A stretch of 64,000 bases of DNA. It comes from Minisyncoccota bacterium (lineage in GTDB: Bacteria > Patescibacteriota > Minisyncoccia > Phycocordibacterales > UBA1006). Where the stretch lies: positions 57,892 through 121,891 of the forward strand of contig DASWYC010000002.1 in NCBI GenBank assembly GCA_036405175.1, written 5' to 3'. Shown piece after piece: positions 4,081 to 41,505 of this stretch (position 1 is its first letter; the number at the start of each line of letters is the position of its first letter). The position numbers and the translations under genes are program-made. The notes beneath the pieces are model-generated. The model was not told the DNA's origin. It was given only the letters and a program-made list of their open reading frames with translations, and searched no databases.

Positions 4081-4635
4081 TTAATTTTTAACTATATTAA
4101 CTAAATAAAATTTACTACAAAATAAAGAAAAGTCAAACAAAAGTCGCATAGTTTCTATGCGACTTACGGAAGAGTTCTTTCTTCGTTTTGTTTTGATCCG
4201 ACTTAATCTACGAAGACTAAGTAGTCTGTTGAAGGCTTTTGATAATATAAATCTTATTAGCAAAAGAGTGTAGTTAACCATTAGCGCAAAAAGTAAGTTA
4301 AGGAACGTGAACTTCAGAAATCTTAATGTTTCTTCGTGAAAGCTTGTCGTTATAAAACATCCTAAGAATCCGATTAATGGAAATAGTGCTATAACAACAT
4401 TGGTTCCTCTGTTTCTTTTTACTTCTTTTTCAATATCAAAGTTGTAGTTAATTCTTGATTCGTTGATTAACTCAATCTTTCCGAATAGTATCAAACTACA
4501 AACGGAAATAGTTACGACGAAAAAGAATTCATCTCTTTTTATTGACCATAAAAGTGCAGTAATAACAGCAAAGACAATCGTTGCAATAATGGGTAATAGT
4601 ACCCTTACAAAAAAAGATTCATTTTTCATATCCAA
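4081..4635 (-). CDS. hypothetical polytopic membrane protein
   Basis: 184 aa ORF with several TM segments and a basic C-terminal tail. Confidence 0.35.
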   Translation of the reverse strand: MDMKNESFFVRVLLPIIATIVFAVITALLWSIKRDEFFFVVTISVCSLILFGKIELINESRINYNFDIEKEVKRNRGTNVVIALFPLIGFLGCFITTSFHEETLRFLKFTFLNLLFALMVNYTLLLIRFILSKAFNRLLSLRRLSRIKTKRRKNSSVSRIETMRLLFDFSLFCSKFYLVNIVKN

Positions 4636-13310: not shown

Positions 13311-13862
13311 CTATTGATTGAGTTCTTGCTTAAGTTTGCTGAGCGCACGATGGTGCCAACTTTTTACCGTGTTCATAGGGGTTTCTAAAACGTCACTAAT
13401 TTCTTGAAAGGTAAGTTCTTGTTGATAGTGAAGGATGAGTACAGATTTGTAATTGATTGGAAGATTGTTAAGATGATTTTCAAGAAACACTGAATCAAAT
13501 TGCTGATCAAGAATATCAACCACAGAAGTATGATCGCTGGGAAGTGAAGATTCAAAATCTTGATCATTAGATGAAAGTTGAGAAAAGGTGAATGATTTCT
13601 TTTTACGAAGATGATCCGTTGCAGTGTTGCGTGCAATAGTAAAGAGCCATGCTCTAAAACTTTGTGCGGAGTTGTATTGTGTAAACCGTTGCCACATTTT
13701 AATGAATGTTTCTTGGGTGGCGTCTTCCGCAAGTGCGGCATCATTACTTATGCGATAAATAAAGTTGTAGAGCGGGACAGTGTAGCGTTCAATTAATATA
13801 TTGAGCGCCTGAGAATCTTTAAGAAGAATTTTTTCTACGAGTGCGGTATCCGAAAGTTCCAT
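13311..13862 (-). CDS. RNA polymerase ECF-type sigma factor (sigma-70 regions 2 and 4)
   Basis: Region 2 FIKMWQRF...FRAWLFTIARNTATDHLRKK and a C-terminal region-4 HTH. Confidence 0.8.
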   Translation of the reverse strand: MELSDTALVEKILLKDSQALNILIERYTVPLYNFIYRISNDAALAEDATQETFIKMWQRFTQYNSAQSFRAWLFTIARNTATDHLRKKKSFTFSQLSSNDQDFESSLPSDHTSVVDILDQQFDSVFLENHLNNLPINYKSVLILHYQQELTFQEISDVLETPMNTVKSWHHRALSKLKQELNQ

Positions 13863-16726: not shown

Positions 16727-18442
16727 ATGAAACTCCTCGCGCAGATTAAACAATCAATTGAGTCGTATCTCCTCAAAACACATGGTATTGCGGAAGATGC
16801 TCAGCTAATTTTATCTGATCTTAATCACGCTGATTTTCAATATAACGGTGCGCTCAAATTTGCAAAACAGCTTGGTGTTGCGCCACTAAAAATTGCAGAA
16901 GAAATTGTTGAACAACTTACGCAGTATGTTCAAGATGTTGAGATTAAAGCCGTGGCTCCAGGATATGTTAATTTTATCTACACACAATCATATATTGAAG
17001 ACGCACTTGCGCCGCTTGTAACCGGGGATGTTAAGCCGAACATTGTAGACAAAAAACGCATCATGGTTGAGTACACTGATCCAAACACCTTTAAAGTGTT
17101 CCATATTGGGCACCTTATGACCAATGCTATTGGAGAATCATTAGCGCGTTTGTTTGAATACGGTGGACACGATGTGATTCGTGCAAATTATCAGGGAGAT
17201 GTTGGACGTCATATTGCTCAGGCAATTTATGGAGTACTCAATGGTGATATTCAGCGCCCTGCAGATGATGCTCCGCTTAAAGAAAAAACAGAATATCTTG
17301 GAAAGTGTTATGTCTATGGTGCTCAGCAATTTGAAGCGTCAGATGATGCAAAAGCAAAAATCAGAGAAATCAACGCTCATATTTATAACAATGATAACGA
17401 AGAAATTAACGCATGGAATCAAAAAGGGCGCAATTGGTCACTGGAGCGTTTTGAAGAACTCTATAAAATTCTTAATACAAAATTTAATTACTACTTTTTT
17501 GAATCTCAAACCGCACCAATCGGACTAGAGAAGGTAAAAGCAAATATTCCAAGCGTATTTGTTGAATCTGACGGGGCAATCGTATTTAAGGGTGAAGAAT
17601 ATGGATTGCATACGCGTGTATTCATTAACAAAGAAGGCCTGCCAACCTATGAAGCAAAAGATGTTGGACTTGCGTATCTTAAGCATGAAAAAGAACCAAA
17701 GCTTAATATTTCAATTACCGTAACCGCCAATGAACAGGCTGAATACTTTAAGGTAATGAAGAAAGCTGTTGAATGTATTGATCTAAAAATTGCATCACCA
17801 ATGATGCATGTGTACCACGGAATGATGAGCGGGCCGGGTGGTAAAAAAATGTCATCACGTAAAGGTGATGTTGTTACCGGTGAAAGCTTGATTGAGGACG
17901 CAATGGAGCGCGCACGCGAGGTAATTGAAGAACACTATAAAGATAAAAAAACTGCCGCAGAAAAGGATGCTATTGCAGAAGCGGTTGCAGTTGCTGCTAT
18001 TAAATTCACCATTCTTAAACAGGACAGTTCAAAAAATATTATGTTTGATCTTGAAAAGGCACTTTCTTTTGAAGGAGATAGTGGACCATATTTGCTCTAT
18101 ACCAATGCACGGTTGTGTTCAATCATTCGTAAATCATCAGGATTGATGAATGTTCTTGGGCGAATGTTTAGTGCTAAAAAATCTGACCCAGTGGGCGAGC
18201 TTGAACGAGTATTGATGCAATTTCCAATTGTTGCTGAGCGCGCTGTTGAAGCAATGGAATCACATCGCATCACTACCTATGCACTTGAACTTTCACGAGC
18301 AATTAATAGTTGGTATGGATCACATAAAGTTATTGGGTCAGGGGAGTACGAAGCGTATCGTTTACGTGTGGTGCAGGCTGCACAGCAAACGCTTAAAACA
18401 TGCATTGAACTTTTGGGGATGAAAGCGGTTGAGGAGATGTAG
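16727..18442 (+). CDS. argS: arginine--tRNA ligase
   Basis: HIGH-type motif FHIGHLMTN, C-terminal DALR anticodon-binding region. Start moved to MKLLAQIKQ (16727), downstream of the rplK terminator. Confidence 0.9.
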   Translation: MKLLAQIKQSIESYLLKTHGIAEDAQLILSDLNHADFQYNGALKFAKQLGVAPLKIAEEIVEQLTQYVQDVEIKAVAPGYVNFIYTQSYIEDALAPLVTGDVKPNIVDKKRIMVEYTDPNTFKVFHIGHLMTNAIGESLARLFEYGGHDVIRANYQGDVGRHIAQAIYGVLNGDIQRPADDAPLKEKTEYLGKCYVYGAQQFEASDDAKAKIREINAHIYNNDNEEINAWNQKGRNWSLERFEELYKILNTKFNYYFFESQTAPIGLEKVKANIPSVFVESDGAIVFKGEEYGLHTRVFINKEGLPTYEAKDVGLAYLKHEKEPKLNISITVTANEQAEYFKVMKKAVECIDLKIASPMMHVYHGMMSGPGGKKMSSRKGDVVTGESLIEDAMERAREVIEEHYKDKKTAAEKDAIAEAVAVAAIKFTILKQDSSKNIMFDLEKALSFEGDSGPYLLYTNARLCSIIRKSSGLMNVLGRMFSAKKSDPVGELERVLMQFPIVAERAVEAMESHRITTYALELSRAINSWYGSHKVIGSGEYEAYRLRVVQAAQQTLKTCIELLGMKAVEEM

Positions 18443-18460
18443 GGTGATATACTTTAGGGT

Positions 18461-18877
18461 ATGTTCATACATGATTATATCTATGTTCCATTTATAAATA
18501 TTTTTATATTCTATCCTTGGATTACTTATATTCTTATTATTATTGGGTCTTTTCTTGCTCGTTTAAGAAATAAAAAGAAAAACCAACAGATTGATATTCT
18601 CTATTGGGTGTTCACTGGAATTGCAGCAGTCTCACTAATTGGGCTCAACCTTACGTTTACTAGCCTTAGCACAGGTTTCTTTATCGCTGAACTTGTGATT
18701 GCTGCTGTTCTGCTGACAATTAAATTCTTTTTTAAAAAAGAAAATTTTGTTGTGAACTATTTGCTGCTGATAATTACTATCCCCGCTATTATTTCTATAA
18801 TCGTAATTATTATGACTTTATTGCACCCTCCATGTATGGGATGTATAGACCTTCCACGTGTTCCACTTCCAATTTAA
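18461..18877 (+). CDS. small 4-TM membrane protein ending HPPCMGC...VPLP; tandem paralog 1
   Basis: Aligns throughout with the next gene (WVFTGIAAVSL vs YVFLGISVLAL; FIAELVIAAVLL vs FVAEIIIMIVLL; HPPCMGC vs HPDCMGC; C-terminal VPLP). Confidence 0.5.
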   Translation: MFIHDYIYVPFINIFIFYPWITYILIIIGSFLARLRNKKKNQQIDILYWVFTGIAAVSLIGLNLTFTSLSTGFFIAELVIAAVLLTIKFFFKKENFVVNYLLLIITIPAIISIIVIIMTLLHPPCMGCIDLPRVPLPI

Positions 18878-18887
18878 AAAATAAAAA

Positions 18888-18919
18888 ATCACAGAATAAT
18901 ATTATTCTGCGATTTTTAA
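18888..18919 (+). terminator. hairpin terminator (ATCACAGAATAAT / ATTATTCTGCGAT + T-tract)
   Basis: Seen directly, one mismatch. Confidence 0.5.
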
Positions 18920-18958
18920 ATGAATGAAGAGTATCGGGAGAGGTGATATGCTATAGAT

Positions 18959-19420
18959 ATGCACATTATTTCTATGCTACTTCCATGGGTTTCAGGTATT
19001 TTAATTTGTATTGGACTTATTATTGCATGGCAAAGGAGTAAAAAGAGAAATCGTTCTTTAAATATAACCTATTATGTATTTTTAGGTATTTCAGTACTTG
19101 CCCTGATCGTAATAGACCGATTTTTTAGAGGTATGCTTATAAGTCTGTTTAGTAATACTGTTCATCCAGGCTACTTCGTAGCTGAAATCATTATTATGAT
19201 TGTATTATTAATAATAAGATTTATTCCTAAAAAAGGAAATTTAAATTTTATTGTAAATCATCTCTTGTATATATTTGCTATTCCAGTTATTCTCGGCACG
19301 ATTGATTTGGTGAATGCGGTTCGTCATCCTGACTGTATGGGTTGCCCAATTTACATTAATGATGATCCCACCAGAGAATTCAATGCCATAGAAGGATTGA
19401 GACATGTGCCTTTGCCCTAA
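18959..19420 (+). CDS. small 4-TM membrane protein ending HPDCMGC...VPLP; tandem paralog 2
   Basis: See paralog 1. Confidence 0.5.
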   Translation: MHIISMLLPWVSGILICIGLIIAWQRSKKRNRSLNITYYVFLGISVLALIVIDRFFRGMLISLFSNTVHPGYFVAEIIIMIVLLIIRFIPKKGNLNFIVNHLLYIFAIPVILGTIDLVNAVRHPDCMGCPIYINDDPTREFNAIEGLRHVPLP

Positions 19421-19435
19421 TAAAAGAAAATAAAA

Positions 19436-19467
19436 AACAGTAGAATGATTTCATTCTACTGTTTTTG
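19436..19467. terminator. hairpin terminator (AACAGTAGAATGA / TCATTCTACTGTT + T-tract)
   Basis: Perfect 13-bp inverted repeat. Confidence 0.65.
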
Positions 19468-19484
19468 TAATTGAGCAAAAAACT

Positions 19485-19835
19485 TTAATTTAAATACTTA
19501 TATTCGAATTGTCTTCGATATTCAAGATAAGAACAGATTAGTGTGGTTAAACCAAGAGTAATACTAAGCCAAAAGGCTTCTTTGAAGAGGGTGTATGAAA
19601 ACCAAACCAAACAAAATCCCCCTATAAGTAAAATACAGTGGATAAAACTTTTTGCGTTAGCGGTCAAGAATGACAGTACTATTGCTGCACTAATTCCTCC
19701 AAAAAAACTGAAAACTGTACCCAAAGGGATTCTTGTCTCTTTGATTGCAAATGAGACGGTGGCGAGTCCTACAATTAAGACAATGTAATAGAAATTAATC
19801 CAAAATAAACTTTTACGTTTTTCCATGTTGTTCAA
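19485..19835 (-). CDS. hypothetical 4-TM membrane protein
   Basis: 116-aa hydrophobic ORF. Confidence 0.4.
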   Translation of the reverse strand: MNNMEKRKSLFWINFYYIVLIVGLATVSFAIKETRIPLGTVFSFFGGISAAIVLSFLTANAKSFIHCILLIGGFCLVWFSYTLFKEAFWLSITLGLTTLICSYLEYRRQFEYKYLN

Positions 19836-19926
19836 GTTTTAAAGTGATATTCTCAAAATACTATTCTTTATATAGATTGTCAAATTTACTAATGCAAAAC
19901 CCCATAAAATACGCTATACTCTTCAA

Positions 19927-22900
19927 ATGAAACAGCCTGACCTGAGCAAGTATTTTGAAGGATTTGAAAAATCTAAGCGTTCGCACGATGAGGAAAATAT
20001 CCTCAATTTTTGGCAAGAAAATCAAATCTTTGAACAATCACTTAAAAAACCATCACCAAAAGGAGAGTATGTTTTTTATGAAGGTCCTCCAACGGCAAAC
20101 GGCCGTCCAGGAATTCACCACTTTTTAGCACGCTCATTTAAAGATGCAATTCCTCGCTATAAAACAATGCAAGGATATCATGTAGCGCGTAAGGCTGGTT
20201 GGGATACACACGGTCTTCCTGTTGAACTTCAGGTAGAAAAAGCGCTTGGGTTGGCTAATAAAAAAGAAATTGAACAATACGGTGTAGAAAAGTTTAATGA
20301 AGCGTGTAAAGAATCAGTGTGGCAGTATCAGTCTGAGTGGGAAGCTATGACCGCCCGCATGGGGTATTGGATTGATATGGAAAATCCATATATCACCTAT
20401 GAGACTCCATATATTGAATCAGTATGGAATATCCTTAAGACAGTTGATGACAAGCAGCTTCTCTTTAAGGATTACAAAATTATTCCATGGTGTCCTCGTT
20501 GTGGAACGGGACTTTCTTCTCATGAGCTTTCACAGGGTTATGAAGATGTAAAAGATATCTCAGTAACAGCAGCATTTAAAGTGACGGGCTCAATTGTTAA
20601 TCTTCCAGAAAATACTTCTATTCTTGCATGGACAACAACACCGTGGACGCTCTTTGGAAACGTTGCGCTTGCCGTAGGAAATACTATTAATTATGTTCTC
20701 GTTCAAGATAGTTCACGTGACAATGCACACTTTATTATCGCTGAAGATCGTTTAAGTTTTGCATATCCTGATCAATCAATAATTAAGGTTATTGGAACGT
20801 ATACAGGAAGTGAATTGGTTGGCACAAAGTATCAACCATTGTTTCCATATGCTGCAGAGTTTATTCAATCACAAACAACTCCTGAACAATTTTCAAAAGC
20901 ATACACGGTATACGATGCAGATTTTGTAACAACCAGTGACGGAACGGGTGTTGTCCACACTGCAGTAATGTATGGAGCTGACGATTTTGATCTTGGTACA
21001 AAATTAGGATTGCCAAAAGTTCATATGGTAAACCAAGACGGAACGTACAAAGAGGGTCTTAAAGATTTTACCGGACGATTTGTTAAAGACGAGCAGGTGA
21101 CCATTGATATTCTCAAAGAACTCACTGTATATAATTCTCTTTTTTCAAAACTCAAGTACGAACACTCATATCCTCACTGTTGGCGCTGTAAAACGCCGGT
21201 GCTGTATTACGCGCGTGACTCATGGTTTATTAGAATGTCTCAACTTGCAGACACGTTGCAGCAAGAAAATGAAAAGATTAATTGGAATCCAAGCCACATC
21301 AAAGAGGGGCGTTTTGGAGAATGGCTCCGTGGTCTTAAAGACTGGGGATTGTCTCGCGAACGGTATTGGGGAACACCACTTCCAATTTGGGAATCAGAAG
21401 AGGGTGGACGGATTACGGTGGGTTCACTTGAAGAGTTAAAAACATATTCAACAAAACCAACCGTTGATCTTATTTTGATTCGTCACGGGTTTGCAACTCA
21501 TTTGCGTGACGGAATCTTTGCCGGTGATCGTGCAAACGATACCGCAACACTTACTGAAGAAGGAATTAAACAGGTACAAGAGCTTGCAAATACGTGTGGC
21601 GATACTATTAAATCTGCTGACGTGATTTTTGTTAGTCCATTTAAGCGTACGCAGGAAACCATTACAATCTTGCAGGATGCGCTTGGTCTTACTCAAGAAG
21701 TTATTGTTGATGATCGTTTAGTTGAAATGAATTTTGGAGCATTTAATGGTAAGAAAAACTCAGAACGCGATGGCTACTTTGATAATGATCAGTACACTAA
21801 AGCAAATCCAGAAGGTGAATCACTCTTTGACGTGCAAAAACGCGTAACGGCGTTCTTGAAAGATGTTGAATCTCAATATGCTGGTAAAAAAGTGATCGTA
21901 ATTAGTCACGATGATACGCTCAGTTTGCTATGTTCTGTTGCACGTGGAATTGTTGATAAAGTTCCTCAGATTCAATATTTTAATCCTGCAGAGTGTCGTA
22001 CCGTAACTTCAACAAATTTGCCAGTAAGCCATGACGGGTTTGTGGATCTCCATAAGCCATATATTGATAATATTGTGCTCAAAAAAAATGAGCGTATATA
22101 TACACGCGTACCAGAAGTGATTGATGTGTGGTTTGATTCTGGGTCAATGCCATTTGCACAACAGCATGCACCATTTGCTGGGGAGCTTACCAGTGCTCAA
22201 TATCCAGCAGATTACATAACCGAAGGTCTTGATCAAACCCGCGGATGGTTTTATACCTTGCTTGCTATTGGATGTTTGATGGGTAAAGGTTCACCATATA
22301 AGAATGTAATTTGCTTAGGACTTTTGCTTGATGACAAGGGGCAGAAAATGTCTAAATCAAAGGGGAACATTGTGTCGCCATGGAAGGTCATGTCTGGCGT
22401 TGGATCAGATGTTGCCCGCATGTGGTTGTATAGCGTGAACCAGCCAGGAGAATCAAAGAGTTTTGACATGGCAATGTTGCAGGATCTTGAGCGTAAATTG
22501 TTTGTGATCTTTGAAAACTGTTTAGAATTTTATAAGCTTTCACCCGATGTTCAAACATCATACAATGCTGATCTTCTTAAGAATGCATCATACTTGGATA
22601 AATGGTTAATAGCATACATGAATACTGTTAAGAAAATGGTGACCGAATCACTTGATGCATACGATCTTTTCACCGCAACTCGCACCATCCGCGATTGTGT
22701 GACCGAATTGTCTCAATGGTATGTGCGTCGTTCGCGTGAAGCACTTAAAGAAGAAGGGGTAGTTGGGGATGCAACGCGTCATACCTACCGCAATGCACTC
22801 CGCGATATTGCCATAATGTTGGCACCGTTTACCCCATTCCACGCAGAAAAATTCTTCCAAGACGTGAAGTTTGAAAATGACCCAGCGTCAGTACATCTTG

Positions 22901-23406
22901 CTGATTGGGTAATATTTAATACTGATAGTTCATCAGATATCTTGAATGAAATGGATCAGACACGCACTGTGATCTCGGAAATTCTTAAGAAGCGTGACGA
23001 GGTAAAAATTAAAGTACGCCAACCGCTCGCTTCAGTGACACTTAATCGCTCATTTAACATTGAACTTCAAGAACTTATTAAAGATGAGGTAAATGTAAAG
23101 GAAATAAAGGTTGATGAAAATGCGTTTGAAACAACACTTGATACAAATCTCACCCAAGAACTTATTGAGGAAGGAATTGCTCGTGAAATCACGCGTGCTA
23201 TTCAATCAATGCGTAAGAATAATAATCTTTCACCAGATGATGCGTTTACGGTTACACTCCAAGATTCAGAACTCGTGCAAAAGATCCTGGATACCTATGG
23301 TGATGATATCTCAAAGAAAACAAAAACTACTCTTGCAACCGCCGCATCGATTACTGATTCAGAAAAAATTACCACTAATCTTGGCGATATTCTCATTCAA
23401 AAGTAA
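19927..23406 (+). CDS. ileS: isoleucine--tRNA ligase (eukaryote-like type 2) with an inserted histidine-phosphatase (PGAM-like) domain of about 190 aa
   Basis: PTANGRPGIHHF (HIGH), WDTHGLP, KMSKS (GQKMSKSKGN). The insert between ...EELKTYSTKPTVD and LHKPYIDN carries RHG, SPFKRTQET, LVEMNFGAFNG and SHDD motifs. Confidence 0.9.
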   Translation: MKQPDLSKYFEGFEKSKRSHDEENILNFWQENQIFEQSLKKPSPKGEYVFYEGPPTANGRPGIHHFLARSFKDAIPRYKTMQGYHVARKAGWDTHGLPVELQVEKALGLANKKEIEQYGVEKFNEACKESVWQYQSEWEAMTARMGYWIDMENPYITYETPYIESVWNILKTVDDKQLLFKDYKIIPWCPRCGTGLSSHELSQGYEDVKDISVTAAFKVTGSIVNLPENTSILAWTTTPWTLFGNVALAVGNTINYVLVQDSSRDNAHFIIAEDRLSFAYPDQSIIKVIGTYTGSELVGTKYQPLFPYAAEFIQSQTTPEQFSKAYTVYDADFVTTSDGTGVVHTAVMYGADDFDLGTKLGLPKVHMVNQDGTYKEGLKDFTGRFVKDEQVTIDILKELTVYNSLFSKLKYEHSYPHCWRCKTPVLYYARDSWFIRMSQLADTLQQENEKINWNPSHIKEGRFGEWLRGLKDWGLSRERYWGTPLPIWESEEGGRITVGSLEELKTYSTKPTVDLILIRHGFATHLRDGIFAGDRANDTATLTEEGIKQVQELANTCGDTIKSADVIFVSPFKRTQETITILQDALGLTQEVIVDDRLVEMNFGAFNGKKNSERDGYFDNDQYTKANPEGESLFDVQKRVTAFLKDVESQYAGKKVIVISHDDTLSLLCSVARGIVDKVPQIQYFNPAECRTVTSTNLPVSHDGFVDLHKPYIDNIVLKKNERIYTRVPEVIDVWFDSGSMPFAQQHAPFAGELTSAQYPADYITEGLDQTRGWFYTLLAIGCLMGKGSPYKNVICLGLLLDDKGQKMSKSKGNIVSPWKVMSGVGSDVARMWLYSVNQPGESKSFDMAMLQDLERKLFVIFENCLEFYKLSPDVQTSYNADLLKNASYLDKWLIAYMNTVKKMVTESLDAYDLFTATRTIRDCVTELSQWYVRRSREALKEEGVVGDATRHTYRNALRDIAIMLAPFTPFHAEKFFQDVKFENDPASVHLADWVIFNTDSSSDILNEMDQTRTVISEILKKRDEVKIKVRQPLASVTLNRSFNIELQELIKDEVNVKEIKVDENAFETTLDTNLTQELIEEGIAREITRAIQSMRKNNNLSPDDAFTVTLQDSELVQKILDTYGDDISKKTKTTLATAASITDSEKITTNLGDILIQK

Positions 23407-23433: not shown

Positions 23434-24006
23434 ATGAGTCATGAGTTTTCTCATAAAAAAGCCATTGTATTTGGGTATAGAAATTATGGAGAAAAAGATC
23501 GCTATTACAATTTATTGATAGAAGATGATGGGCTCCGGTATGTGCGTGTTCAAGGGGTGCGTGATGTAAAGTCAAAACATCGTAATCTACTTGGACTCTT
23601 TGCATGTCCCACTATTACCTATATTCACGGACGGGAATACCGCCTGATTGGAATTCAAGAAGATGAATATCTGGCAACAACAGAAGAATTGGTATTTGCA
23701 TTTAGCTTTATTGCTAATATAACTCGTGTTGTTGAATTTGATGAAGCTGAACACAAAGGTCTCTATCATCTGATTCGTGAAATTCATGACGAGATTAGCC
23801 AGCATCCAGCTGTCCCTCGTACAAAGCTGCTGGTCTATATTGCTAGCACAATTCTTAACTTTATTGGATATGGGGACGAAAAACACGAGCACATGCCGCT
23901 TGAACAGGTTATACTTACCTATGAGACCATTCATACGAAAGTCCGTGCTATGGTGTATGAACATCGCGAGCTCAGCTTTTTGAATGAATATCTTGATATT
24001 GTATGA
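23434..24006 (+). CDS. RecO-like protein (N-terminal OB-fold domain; no zinc-finger seen)
   Basis: Weak resemblance to the RecO N-terminal domain and helical region; 190 aa. Overlaps the next gene by ATGA. Confidence 0.35.
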   Translation: MSHEFSHKKAIVFGYRNYGEKDRYYNLLIEDDGLRYVRVQGVRDVKSKHRNLLGLFACPTITYIHGREYRLIGIQEDEYLATTEELVFAFSFIANITRVVEFDEAEHKGLYHLIREIHDEISQHPAVPRTKLLVYIASTILNFIGYGDEKHEHMPLEQVILTYETIHTKVRAMVYEHRELSFLNEYLDIV

Positions 24007-25901
24007 ATCAGAAGTCACCCATAGAAGAACTTAAGGAGGAAATTACTCATAATGATCCGGTGCCGCACCAAAAAAAGATCATTAAGGATACCAGCTTGCC
24101 CAATAAAAAAGAGCTTGAGTTTTTTAATCCTCAAGAAAAACAAAAAAATTCATATGTAGTACCAAAGCATAAATTTCTTAATACGGTGTTTTTTGTTTCG
24201 TTTGCATTTTTCTTAGCCGTGTTTGGGTACATGGTGTATCGCTATAAATTTGCTGATAGTGTAATTTCAAATCGAAAGATCGAAGTGCATGTGGTAACAC
24301 CAGCATCAATCACCTCTGGAAAGGATGCGCTCTTTACGATGTCGATTAATAACGACAATAAAGCTCCGCTCATGAAGCCAGAAATTGTCACCACGATTAC
24401 AGAAATTAATCAATCAAAAACTGCACCGCTCTTGGATGCGTATGAAAAAGAAGTAAATATTACGCTGAAAGATATTGGAAGTGAGGCTGTTGTTAATCAA
24501 GATGTTCCACTCTTATTTATTGGATCAGCAGGAAAGAAGTTTTTAGTTGAATCACAACTCCAATATTCACTTCCGGATTCTGTGGCGCGTTTTACAAAAG
24601 ATCTGCTGCGCCAAGAGGTGACCATTACCAACAATCCGATTGCTATTACTCCTAAATTAAGTGAGCAGAGAATTGTTGAAGGACAAGAATACACCACAAG
24701 TTTTACGCTTCAAAATACTGATACGAATGATTTTGAAAACATTGCACTCCGCATTAGTGCTCCAGAGGGGGCAACGGCAGTCATTCAAGAAGCTAAAAGT
24801 TTTGAAGGGGGAGGCACGTATCCAATTGGACTTTTAAAGAGTCGTGAGCTTCAAACTTTTACGCTGAATGGTGTTCTTGATGCGCGATCACAAGATGTAT
24901 CTGTAATTACTATTGAAGTGGTGTCACTTAAAAGTCTAGGAAGTGAAGAAGTTGATAGTGTGCTTTCAAAAAATACTATTACCTTTACAAAAGAAAAACC
25001 ATTTATTACCGCTCGCCTTGATGGAAATGAGGCACAGCTCACTGTGATCCCACTAAGAGATATTACTACTTCATTTACCATTAAAAATAATTCAAAAGAA
25101 GATTTGCAAGATATTGAAATTCGTCTGAGCTCAACGGGAGATATTATTAACAAACAATCATTGGCAAGTGATAACGCATCATCGGTGGGAACAGGAGAGA
25201 TTGTGTACAGTCGCTTTACGGATGATCGTCTTGAGTCACTTAAGATTGGAGAGAGTATTAGTCTTCCGCTTAAGTTTAGCTCTAATCCGGTGGTGTCTCG
25301 TCAGTTCTTAACAGAAAATCCAGAAAGTGTTGTGGTTGCAAATATTCAAGCGCGCAACTCATCGTTGGAAACATTTAATTTAAAAGATTATCAAGTTGGA
25401 AAAGTGCAGGGTCAAACAACTGCTGAGCTCACGTTCTACACCATTCCATCAACAAATGGTACCTATGTTGAATCGGGAGCATTTCCGTTGAGGATTGGAA
25501 GTACAAGTCAAATGTTAGTACGGTTTGAAGTGAAAAATACTTCAAACACTTTAAATGCCACCAAGATAAGTTTTAAATTGCCGTACTATGTAAGTTTTGG
25601 GCAGAATAAAACATTGGGTGAGAATGTTGCCTATAATGATGTTGAGCGTACCGTAACGTGGAATATTGGTGAGTTGGCAGCAGGAGCTGGCGTGATTGAA
25701 GGAACTGAGCGTGCCCTTACTTTGAGCTTATTTATCACTCCTGTGGTGTCCCAGGCTGATCAAGTAGTGCCACTTACCTCAGAAGTAACGTTAAGCGGAA
25801 CGGATGCGCTCACTAAAAAAGCAATTCAGGTTAAGCGACCATCACTTAAACCATCATTTGATGGGGTAAACGATGATCAGCTTAAGGTGCAGCGGCGATA
25901 A
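24003..25901 (+). CDS. membrane-anchored extracellular protein with repeated beta-sandwich (CARDB/DUF11-like) modules
   Basis: Single N-terminal TM helix. Internal repeats share T.TFTLQNT... / TTSFTIKNNS... / VRFEVKNTSN patterns. Confidence 0.45.
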   Translation: MNQKSPIEELKEEITHNDPVPHQKKIIKDTSLPNKKELEFFNPQEKQKNSYVVPKHKFLNTVFFVSFAFFLAVFGYMVYRYKFADSVISNRKIEVHVVTPASITSGKDALFTMSINNDNKAPLMKPEIVTTITEINQSKTAPLLDAYEKEVNITLKDIGSEAVVNQDVPLLFIGSAGKKFLVESQLQYSLPDSVARFTKDLLRQEVTITNNPIAITPKLSEQRIVEGQEYTTSFTLQNTDTNDFENIALRISAPEGATAVIQEAKSFEGGGTYPIGLLKSRELQTFTLNGVLDARSQDVSVITIEVVSLKSLGSEEVDSVLSKNTITFTKEKPFITARLDGNEAQLTVIPLRDITTSFTIKNNSKEDLQDIEIRLSSTGDIINKQSLASDNASSVGTGEIVYSRFTDDRLESLKIGESISLPLKFSSNPVVSRQFLTENPESVVVANIQARNSSLETFNLKDYQVGKVQGQTTAELTFYTIPSTNGTYVESGAFPLRIGSTSQMLVRFEVKNTSNTLNATKISFKLPYYVSFGQNKTLGENVAYNDVERTVTWNIGELAAGAGVIEGTERALTLSLFITPVVSQADQVVPLTSEVTLSGTDALTKKAIQVKRPSLKPSFDGVNDDQLKVQRR

Positions 25902-32858: not shown

Positions 32859-32918
32859 TACACTAACTTCTAAGTCCACTGAAAAATCCCACCATTTCTG
32901 GTCGGATTTTTCTTCTTG

Positions 32919-32989
32919 TTGCGGAGGTCCGAATCGAACGGACATCCCAGGGTTATGAGCCCCGTGAGTTACCTTTACTCCACTCCGCG
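32919..32989 (-). tRNA. initiator tRNA-fMet (anticodon CAT)
   Basis: Hand-folded cloverleaf. C1·A72 mismatch, A11:U24, three consecutive G:C pairs at 29-31:39-41, T-loop TTCGATT. No CCA encoded. Confidence 0.8.
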
Positions 32990-33070: not shown

Positions 33071-33442
33071 ATGAAGAAATCACTCAAATTTATCCTTATC
33101 GGGATAATTGGAATTGTTATTGGATTTGTGGGCGGTCGTTTTATTCGCGTTCAGCCAGCTCCAATGGATCATTCTCAAATGGGAATGGGTGACCAGATGT
33201 CATCAATGACCACTTCAATCAAAGATTTGAAAGGGGATGAGTTTGATAAAAAGTTTCTTGAAGAAATGATCGTGCATCACCAGGGCGCAGTAGACATGGC
33301 ACGTTTAGTGCTTAAAAATAGCCAAAGGGAAGAGCTTAAGGCACTCGCCAGTGATATTGTGAGTGCTCAAACGAAAGAAATTAGCATGATGAAAGAGTGG
33401 CTTAAAACGTGGTTTGCACCCGCTGGAACTAAAAAGAAATAA
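33071..33442 (+). CDS. DUF305-family secreted/anchored protein
   Basis: N-terminal TM/signal. HHQGAVDMA motif characteristic of DUF305. Confidence 0.65.
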   Translation: MKKSLKFILIGIIGIVIGFVGGRFIRVQPAPMDHSQMGMGDQMSSMTTSIKDLKGDEFDKKFLEEMIVHHQGAVDMARLVLKNSQREELKALASDIVSAQTKEISMMKEWLKTWFAPAGTKKK

Positions 33443-33443
33443 G

Positions 33444-33484
33444 CAAATATCCCAGATCACCTAGGTGACCTGGGATATTTCTTG
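33444..33484. terminator. long hairpin (AAATATCCCAGATCACC / GGTGACCTGGGATATTT), bidirectional terminator for the DUF305 gene and the minus-strand tRNA
   Basis: 17-bp stem with one mismatch; T-runs on both sides. Confidence 0.6.
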
Positions 33485-33558
33485 TGTCAGAGGGCGGACT
33501 TGAACCGCCGACCTGAGGTTTATGAATCCTCCGCTCTAACCAGCTGAGCTACACTGAC
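33485..33558 (-). tRNA. elongator tRNA with CAT anticodon (tRNA-Met or lysidine-type tRNA-Ile2)
   Basis: Hand-folded. D-arm GCTCAGCTGGTTAGAGC, anticodon loop TTCATAA, T-arm GGCGGTTCAAGTCCGCC (Ile2-like in E. coli), C11:G24. Confidence 0.75.
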
Positions 33559-40464: not shown

Positions 40465-41505
40465 GTGAAATCTATGATCAGAAAGGTTTATTGCACAACA
40501 GGTTTTTATAATGGACATATTGAAATGTCCTTTAAAATATGTAGAATACGAGTAATGGACAAATCACCACTCGCAAATTCTAATGGACAGGATAATCATG
40601 GTAATGGACAAGAAAATGTATGGTTGGAATTTATAACGGACAATAAAGATTTTCTTGTGTCCTTTAGAACGCGTGTCCGTAAGATTTCTTCAGCACTCTA
40701 TATGCTGGGTAACCTTTGGCAGGAAGATGACTTTGGTAAACACTTACATTCGGTGTCCCTTACTATTTTGAGTGCTTCAAAAATTCCTGTAACGGACAAT
40801 CGTCACACTATCATGAATCACTTTATGTCCGTTAAAGAGTCAGTTGAGTATGCATTGTCTCTTATTATCTTTGGCGCAGAAGCAGGACTTCTTGCCACAT
40901 CAAACGTAACCATGATTACGCCGTTTTGCATTGCACTGCTTGGTGACCTCCACGATCTTGAAAATACCCTTCCTGCACTTTTTAATACTTCACGCGTTAA
41001 TAATGCTAAGAGTACTGCTCAAGCGCCAGATGCGAGCGCAGATCTGGCCAACATACTTACTAAGGATCACGGAGATTTCTTTAATCAAGCTGGTTCAGAA
41101 CGCAAAGAAATTCGTGTTCCTGTTCAGCCGCCTACATATATACATACCCCAGCATCAGCAGCAGCTGAAGTTCCTGTGGCTCAAGATATCCACACACTAA
41201 TGTCGCCAACAACGGCTCCGGTTACTGCCCAAGAATTTGTTCAAGCTCGAACCGTTCCAGTTGCTCAAACACAATTGCAACAGCCAGTGCGTACTCGCCA
41301 GGAGGCTACAACTAATCAATATCGGGAAGCTATTTTTGCTGCCATCAAAGCATCAGAACAACAAACACCAAGTGAATTGCAGGCTCAATTTCCAGCATTA
41401 AGCGCAAAGCGTATTCAGCGAGAGCTCCAGCAATTGGTGCAAGAAAAACGGGTCATTAAGAAAGGGGAAAAGCGCTGGGTTTCCTACCATTTGAACGCTT
41501 CATAG
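40465..41505 (+). CDS. hypothetical protein with Q/P/T-rich linker and C-terminal winged-helix-like DNA-binding module
   Basis: C-terminus AKRIQRELQQLVQEKRVIKKGEKRWVSYHL resembles a wHTH. Start uncertain. Confidence 0.35.
   Translation: MKSMIRKVYCTTGFYNGHIEMSFKICRIRVMDKSPLANSNGQDNHGNGQENVWLEFITDNKDFLVSFRTRVRKISSALYMLGNLWQEDDFGKHLHSVSLTILSASKIPVTDNRHTIMNHFMSVKESVEYALSLIIFGAEAGLLATSNVTMITPFCIALLGDLHDLENTLPALFNTSRVNNAKSTAQAPDASADLANILTKDHGDFFNQAGSERKEIRVPVQPPTYIHTPASAAAEVPVAQDIHTLMSPTTAPVTAQEFVQARTVPVAQTQLQQPVRTRQEATTNQYREAIFAAIKASEQQTPSELQAQFPALSAKRIQRELQQLVQEKRVIKKGEKRWVSYHLNAS

Follow-up and report, generated by a model that had tools for sequence, protein, structure and literature searches.

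This report concerns two adjacent genes, here called A and B, on contig DASWYC010000002.1 of a Candidatus Paceibacterota genome. They lie within a stretch of 64,000 nucleotides, the window, which was analysed as a whole and from whose first letter all positions are counted. The two genes and the motifs that they share are located as follows.

18461-18877, forward strand: gene A (NCBI locus tag VGE63_00585), encoding a four-pass membrane protein of 138 amino acids (aa).
18824-18844, forward strand: H-P-P-C-M-G-C motif of A (H122, C125 and C128), immediately 3' of the fourth transmembrane (TM) helix, TM4.
18860-18871, forward strand: VPLP of A, near the C-terminus and followed by Ile and then the stop codon.
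18959-19420, forward strand: gene B, encoding a four-pass membrane protein of 153 aa, a paralogue of A.
19325-19345, forward strand: H-P-D-C-M-G-C motif of B (H123, C126 and C129).
19406-19417, forward strand: VPLP of B, at the C-terminus and preceded by a 15-residue acidic linker that is absent from A.

An earlier note on this DNA, which drew on the letters and a list of open reading frames (ORFs), had placed A and B at these positions and called them paralogues along their whole length. Both statements hold. BLASTP aligns the two proteins at 41% identity over 121 columns (E 1e-22), and in the MAFFT alignment the identity is 46% across 127 shared columns. The pair reaches a Smith-Waterman score of 243. 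Full shuffles give 35 +/- 6 (z 34), and shuffling within the individual TM or loop segments gives 52 +/- 11 (z 16.7). Because a z of 16.7 persists in the segment-wise shuffles, the likeness reflects homology and not shared hydrophobic composition. Judged by their sequences, A and B are true paralogues that belong to no known family. No further paralogue of the pair was found within the window.

The two proteins have in common the C-terminal motif HPxCMGC, in which the His, the Pro, both Cys, the Met and the Gly are invariant, and a terminal VPLP(I), as the note had described. Besides these two genes, the window holds no HPxCMGC or VPLP motif of this kind in a real frame. A contains two cysteines in total, both in the motif; B contains three, of which two form the motif pair and the third (C17) is an unconserved residue inside TM1. 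A Glu in the outer half of TM3 is also invariant (E77 in A, E76 in B), and TM4 contributes the other invariant polar-type positions within helices, one Asn and one Pro.

A and B are genuine genes under purifying selection. Between them, the nonsynonymous divergence (dN) is 0.46 and the synonymous divergence (dS) about 2, giving a dN/dS of about 0.22. Identity falls in the coding order, from codon position 2 through 1 to 3, and the three indels in the alignment are all in frame. Within the motif, the codons for His, Gly and the second Cys differ synonymously, as do all four codons of VPLP, and therefore it is the residues rather than the DNA that selection has kept. The earlier note had suggested a possibly recent expansion. 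A recent duplication is ruled out by the saturation of synonymous sites (proportion of synonymous differences, pS, 0.70); since protein identity, too, is only 41-46%, the duplication is old.

Kyte-Doolittle profiles and AlphaFold secondary structure agree on four long helices in both proteins, as had been claimed for them; in A these cover residues 3-37, 42-65, 69-90 and 96-121. The AlphaFold models show a generic four-helix bundle with a disordered tail (predicted local distance difference test score, pLDDT, 57.8 and 59.7). Eight of the nine Lys/Arg residues of A fall in loops 1 and 3 (RLRNKKKN and K..KK). B has eight in the same loops and five elsewhere, and its tail is net acidic. From this distribution we infer an N-out/C-out topology, in which loops 1 and 3 would be cytoplasmic and the N-terminus, loop 2 and the C-terminal tail outside. 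The motif thus keeps the position that the note had given it, at the membrane surface beside the last TM helix, and since the positive-inside rule puts the tail outside, the His/Cys/Met/Cys cluster is predicted at the outer face. The H-x2-C-x2-C array and its Met would then be exposed at the outer surface, beside the membrane-embedded Glu of an adjacent helix.

Each gene forms a unit with signals of its own.

18443-18457, forward strand: promoter-like element of A, GGTGATATACTTTAG, with an extended -10 box TG-A-TATACT at 18445-18453 that ends 7 nt 5' of the ATG.
18942-18956, forward strand: promoter-like element of B, GGTGATATGCTATAG, with an extended -10 box TG-A-TATGCT that ends 6 nt 5' of the ATG.
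18884-18917, unstranded: intrinsic terminator hairpin of A, with an A-tract on one side and a T-tract on the other (-12.8 kcal/mol, z -7.2).
19433-19466, unstranded: intrinsic terminator hairpin of B (-18.6 kcal/mol, z -6.3), bidirectional, also closing the convergent gene C (see below).

When the two units are compared, the best-conserved DNA is found outside the coding body and consists of the 15-nt element before the ATG and the terminator. The 15-nt elements are identical at 13/15 positions, reading G-TG-A-TATACT in front of A and G-TG-A-TATGCT in front of B. Both hairpins are bordered by A- and T-tracts, and their stems differ through paired changes; that each gene has its own terminator, another claim of the note, is borne out by their folding energies. 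Sites of the form TATA[CAG]T-N5-8-ATG are not peculiar to the pair. Throughout the window, 15 of 21 such sites stand exactly at the starts of ORFs of at least 60 aa, often with TGn ahead, and a survey of gene starts in the window found essentially no Shine-Dalgarno-like sequences. Examples of box-type starts are those at 1403(-), 15277(-), 18461, 19927, 26263, 28971, 32278, 35031, 45915, 48088, 49084, 50583, 56063(-) and 58787. The box in front of ileS is of the same type both in the present genome and in a relative (L008, introduced below). The pattern implies that, as far as sequence can tell, extended -10 promoters yielding leaderless mRNAs are the norm in this organism. Because their boxes end 7 and 6 nt from the ATG, leaderless mRNAs are likewise predicted for A and B, each of which appears to possess a native-type promoter. 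We also considered the upstream element as a private regulatory site or as a Shine-Dalgarno sequence; both were rejected, the element being the organism's general leaderless -10 box.

That the family was not recognised in the earlier note agrees with all of our searches, in which no curated family, solved structure or other protein matched. Comparison of A and B with Pfam, NCBIfam, PHROGs and PADLOC gave sub-threshold noise only, and a sequence-profile search of PDB gave no match. Word-index protein searches with A, B and the neighbouring gene C returned self-matches only, one of them annotated as the hypothetical protein VGE63_00585 from a Candidatus Paceibacterota metagenome-assembled genome (668-kb contig). 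When 1.84 billion representative proteins were searched exhaustively with an HMMER profile, A and B alone were recovered. At the DNA level, A/B profile scans of JGI metagenomes and IMG/VR turned up matches to the motif and yet no relative. No phage or plasmid sequence in the collections searched with tblastn matched B, and Rfam gave nothing above threshold over the region of the three genes. For comparison, 160 loci of relatives were drawn from GTDB genomes and JGI metagenomes with isoleucyl-tRNA synthetase (IleRS) as the probe. Neither tblastn with A, B and C nor a scan for the motif HP.C..C found anything alike in these 160 ileS loci, a result qualified by the fact that this synteny survey was the sole scan of GTDB and not a DNA-level search for the A/B family. 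Other copies of A and B are on seven contigs from one run series (SRR11449177-88), which are 100% identical over 18301-20000 (1.7 kb); a literature search for these runs gave no result. On 5/7 of these Logan contigs (L003-L007) the gene caller left ORF A uncalled despite identical DNA, and it started B at Met6 (148 aa). Since the caller skipped ORF A so often, protein databases may under-represent small AT-rich membrane genes.

Several known families were compared with the pair individually. The predicted arrangement, four membrane helices in a bundle and a CxxC on the extracytoplasmic side, would recall DsbB (PF02600) and VKOR (PF07884). However, neither Pfam model matched even at E <= 10, the sequence-profile search of PDB was empty, and no structure match was obtained. 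Moreover, A and B lack the second Cys pair, which in those enzymes lies in an extracytoplasmic loop and passes electrons on to the CxxC, since A has the motif cysteines only and the additional C17 of B is unconserved and lies in TM1. Those enzymes further possess a quinone cofactor site. MerC (PF03203) and MerT, like A and B, are small multi-pass inner-membrane proteins. MerC spans the membrane four times, and in both a Cys pair, of the form CxxC in MerC, takes up a soft metal outside. Their pair is inside TM1, whereas that of A and B is in an exposed tail after TM4. A and B also lack a second cytoplasmic Cys pair and a mer operon context, their neighbours being argS and ileS, and neither matched the families; the only MerC match of the Pfam scan was the unrelated gene C (E 0.2). 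Eukaryotic Ctr1 is a very small multi-pass protein in which terminal His/Cys/Met clusters pass Cu(I) into or out of an oligomeric pore. It offers a functional analogy only, implying no homology, and it differs in having three TM helices, a cytosolic HCH motif and an MxxxM in the pore helix. As leads, the nearest analogies in working principle would be MerC and, more loosely, Ctr1.

Other candidates were rejected more directly. In its C-x-G-C spacing and its nearby Met, the motif is reminiscent of the metal-binding loop (GMxCxxC) of heavy-metal-associated (HMA) domains such as CopZ and MerP (PF00403). Those domains are soluble, with a ferredoxin-like beta-alpha-beta-beta-alpha-beta fold, whereas A and B carry the motif in the short disordered tail that follows a TM helix; Pfam gave no match. 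Zinc-binding anti-sigma (ZAS) factors carry H-x3-C-x2-C in an N-terminal cytoplasmic position, as opposed to the H-x2-C-x2-C of A and B, which is C-terminal and predicted outside. They need an adjacent extracytoplasmic-function (ECF) sigma factor; the nearest sigma-70 gene (13311-13862) is about 4.6 kb away. Sorting signals of the PEP-CTERM type, for example VPLPA-CTERM, do not fit, as VPLP here marks the end of the protein with no TM helix or basic cluster after it, and no NCBIfam sorting model matched. For the CPBP or Rce1-like proteases (PF02517), A had no match, and the 9.0 bits of B (E 2.3) fell short of the cut-off of 22.4; as to the motifs of that family, EExxxR and FxxxH, there is a single Glu, and EExxxR is absent. 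Finally, the CxxCH of c-type cytochromes is excluded by the residue after the second Cys (Ile in A, Pro in B) and by a His that precedes the pair.

The genes share their location with a third gene.

18443-19926, unstranded: low-GC island of 1.5 kb containing A, B and C; argS ends at 18442 and ileS starts at 19927.
19485-19835, reverse strand: gene C (VGE63_00595), encoding an orphan multi-pass membrane protein of 113-116 aa that converges on the terminator of B.
19883-19855, reverse strand: promoter-like site of gene C, TTGACA-N17-TATTTT.

Gene C was considered as a third member of the A/B family and rejected, as it is unrelated to either. One gene caller instead gave an 81-aa ORF on the opposite strand in this region (19543-19788). 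The guanine-plus-cytosine content (GC) of the island is 0.32-0.33 (A and B, 0.32) against 0.40 in the window. To call the genes very AT-rich, as the note did, is correct in direction and somewhat overstated. The deficit is mostly at codon position 1, where GC is 0.33-0.40 in the island and 0.49-0.57 elsewhere, other membrane proteins included; at position 3 (GC3) it is only slightly low (0.25-0.28 against 0.31-0.37). Because of this distribution, the low GC mainly reflects amino-acid composition, and the local AT skew of which the note spoke is in fact low GC of this kind.

Upstream of the island lie nusG, the L11 gene and argS. Downstream are ileS, recO, a gene for a 632-aa protein of no recognised family, a class II aminoacyl-tRNA synthetase gene that is probably proS, and genes for an M16 peptidase and an AI-2E family transporter. 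Among the 160 comparison loci the closest relative (L008) is only 62% identical in IleRS and 67% in ArgRS, from which it follows that the lineage is poorly sampled. In this relative the gap between argS and ileS is 89 bp and contains no island, and the two genes are also adjacent in several other Paceibacteria. Since A, B and C have no counterpart at any of the 160 loci and the junction is island-free in the closest relative, the three genes constitute a 1.5-kb accessory island, in line with the accessory role that the note had assumed. At its borders we found no flanking direct or inverted repeats and no adjacent integrase or tRNA gene; together with the native promoters, this disfavours a recent mobile-element insertion. 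More generally, argS and ileS are syntenic in many Paceibacteria (L008-L063 and L088-L107), with a variable junction whose gap ranges from 56 bp to >5 kb and whose inserts are unrelated between lineages.

The best explanation of these data is that A and B represent a lineage-restricted family of small four-pass proteins in a genome of Candidatus Paceibacterota, a member of the candidate phyla radiation (CPR), each predicted to be transcribed separately. An old tandem duplication of the whole unit, comprising promoter, gene and terminator, would have given rise to the pair. As to function, we tentatively favour a putative metal-binding or thiol-redox site at the surface, perhaps completed in an oligomer of A and B, although we hold this at rather less than even confidence. 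The note had proposed a metal- or redox-active motif, a reading with which the kind and placement of the residues would agree. Soft or borderline metals, Cu(I) and Zn(II) among them, are classically bound by His, Cys, Met and Glu, and CxxC is the classic redox-active dithiol. The HPxCMGC motif after TM4 and the Glu of TM3 could accordingly bind a soft metal ion such as Cu or Zn; alternatively, the chemistry at these residues might be that of a redox-active dithiol/disulfide. Such a site might operate within homo-oligomers or A/B hetero-oligomers, and the variable linker with its invariant terminal VPLP might serve as a cap or docking peptide. The mode of action would resemble that of MerC or Ctr1, small membrane proteins that handle metals through terminal Cys/His/Met clusters, with A and B being members of neither family.

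A number of observations weigh against a metal or thiol site. The adjacent genes encode aminoacyl-tRNA synthetases, and no metal, redox or transport gene is adjacent. An outward-facing CxxC in an oxic habitat could be a mere oxidised structural disulfide. The positive-inside rule is the sole basis of the proposed topology, and because confidence in the AlphaFold models is low (see the pLDDT values above), the closeness of the Glu to the motif is a proposal only. Since no homologue exists beyond the two paralogues, conservation comes down to a single comparison, and the identity of the seven Logan contigs leaves no polymorphism to exploit. At 46% identity, moreover, identical runs of four residues are not improbable in themselves.

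The most substantial rival holds that the Cys pair is purely structural, A and B being generic accessory proteins for surface or host interaction, immunity or exclusion, with VPLP as a docking part and no metal or redox chemistry. We regard this as possible though doubtful. It would sit well with a lineage-specific island shared with a third, unrelated orphan membrane gene, at a junction that carries different inserts in other Paceibacteria, and with the lack of metal or redox genes nearby. A disordered tail of variable length that nonetheless ends in an invariant VPLP, with every codon synonymously different, is also what a docking part might look like. However, the invariant His and Met next to the cysteines and the membrane-embedded Glu would be left unexplained, and searches of PADLOC, PHROG, phage and plasmid collections gave no hint of a defence or mobile-element origin. 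CxxC disulfides, furthermore, are strained and typical of redox-active or metal sites rather than of structural ones. A second rival, that the pair is a minimal DsbB/VKOR-like membrane thiol oxidoreductase, in which a four-helix bundle with an outer CxxC oxidises or reduces exported proteins, draws on the four TM helices and on a CxxC whose inner residues are partly hydrophobic and which stands where TM4 reaches its predicted outer end. The CxxC of VKOR is likewise at the outer end of the last helix of its bundle. This reading fails on the profile match and on the missing second Cys pair, and its chance is small.

Two further rivals were considered. If the island were cargo of a phage, plasmid or other mobile element lodged between argS and ileS, A and B might be proteins of the holin, toxin or immunity type. 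The absence of the island from the closest relative, a GC below that of the flanks and the presence of small membrane proteins with their own signals are compatible with this. We nevertheless consider it improbable, as the island is without framing direct or inverted repeats and without an adjoining integrase or tRNA gene, viral contigs, phage genomes, plasmids, PHROGs and PADLOC yielded no matches, and its promoters follow the leaderless layout peculiar to the host. Least probable of all is the suggestion that the ORFs are non-functional: duplicated intergenic DNA of high AT content would contain chance frames, and their translation, rich in Ile, Phe and Leu, would look like TM helices. The low GC with its unusual values at codon position 1, the failure of one caller to report ORF A on 5/7 contigs and the lack of homologues in searches might all be expected in that case. 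Yet the frames have stayed open past synonymous saturation, no indel breaks them, conservation is highest at codon position 2 and dN/dS is about 0.22; native promoter boxes stand at the exact ATGs, and each unit retains a conserved terminator. The codon-position and dN/dS analysis effectively refutes this rival.

Returning to the metal- or thiol-active site, a bolder version, to which we assign rather a low probability, would make A and B an undescribed family of outward-facing, metal- or thiol-active tetraspan proteins, confined to a near-unsampled lineage of Paceibacteria and put to use at the surface of an episymbiotic CPR bacterium. Such a use might be, for example, the capture of a trace metal or reversible thiol contacts with a host cell. 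Its origin may have been local, in AT-rich DNA between argS and ileS, with the duplication following later. Should the motif prove to work as a metal or redox site, A and B would represent a design of very small size and without sequence relatives by which soft metals or thiols are handled on the CPR surface. CPR membrane proteins mostly lack an assigned function, and A and B are one of many sets of lineage-restricted small membrane proteins in these genomes, with no functional context. Their value is chiefly that of a clean case in which an orphan gene pair is shown to be real and under selection, and they also illustrate how gene callers miss such genes, as with ORF A on 5/7 contigs.

Elsewhere in the window, an ORF of 184 aa on the reverse strand (4081-4635) combines a very low GC of 0.30 (0.32 at codon position 1) with roughly four TM segments; it shows no relationship to A or B and may represent a further orphan membrane islet. 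Two ORFs on the forward strand had no Pfam match: the 632-aa ORF mentioned above (24003-25901), which lies in the conserved stretch from recO to proS, and one of 346 aa (40465-41505). A small DUF305 protein (33071-33439, forward strand) is encoded between tRNA-Met genes at 32918-32989 and 33484-33558, 14 kb from A and B, with no link to them shown. DUF305 includes copper-binding four-helix proteins such as CopM.

The IleRS encoded next to the island (19927-23406, forward strand) contains a complete His_Phos_1 domain (E 1.7e-29) at residues 515-675, inserted in the middle of the catalytic domain. The papers searched make no mention of a histidine-phosphatase insertion in IleRS. Of the first 80 related loci, 47 have the insertion at the same position; every one of these is of Paceibacteria/Nomurabacteria type, and the matches from Uhrbacteria and Bacteroidota are without it.
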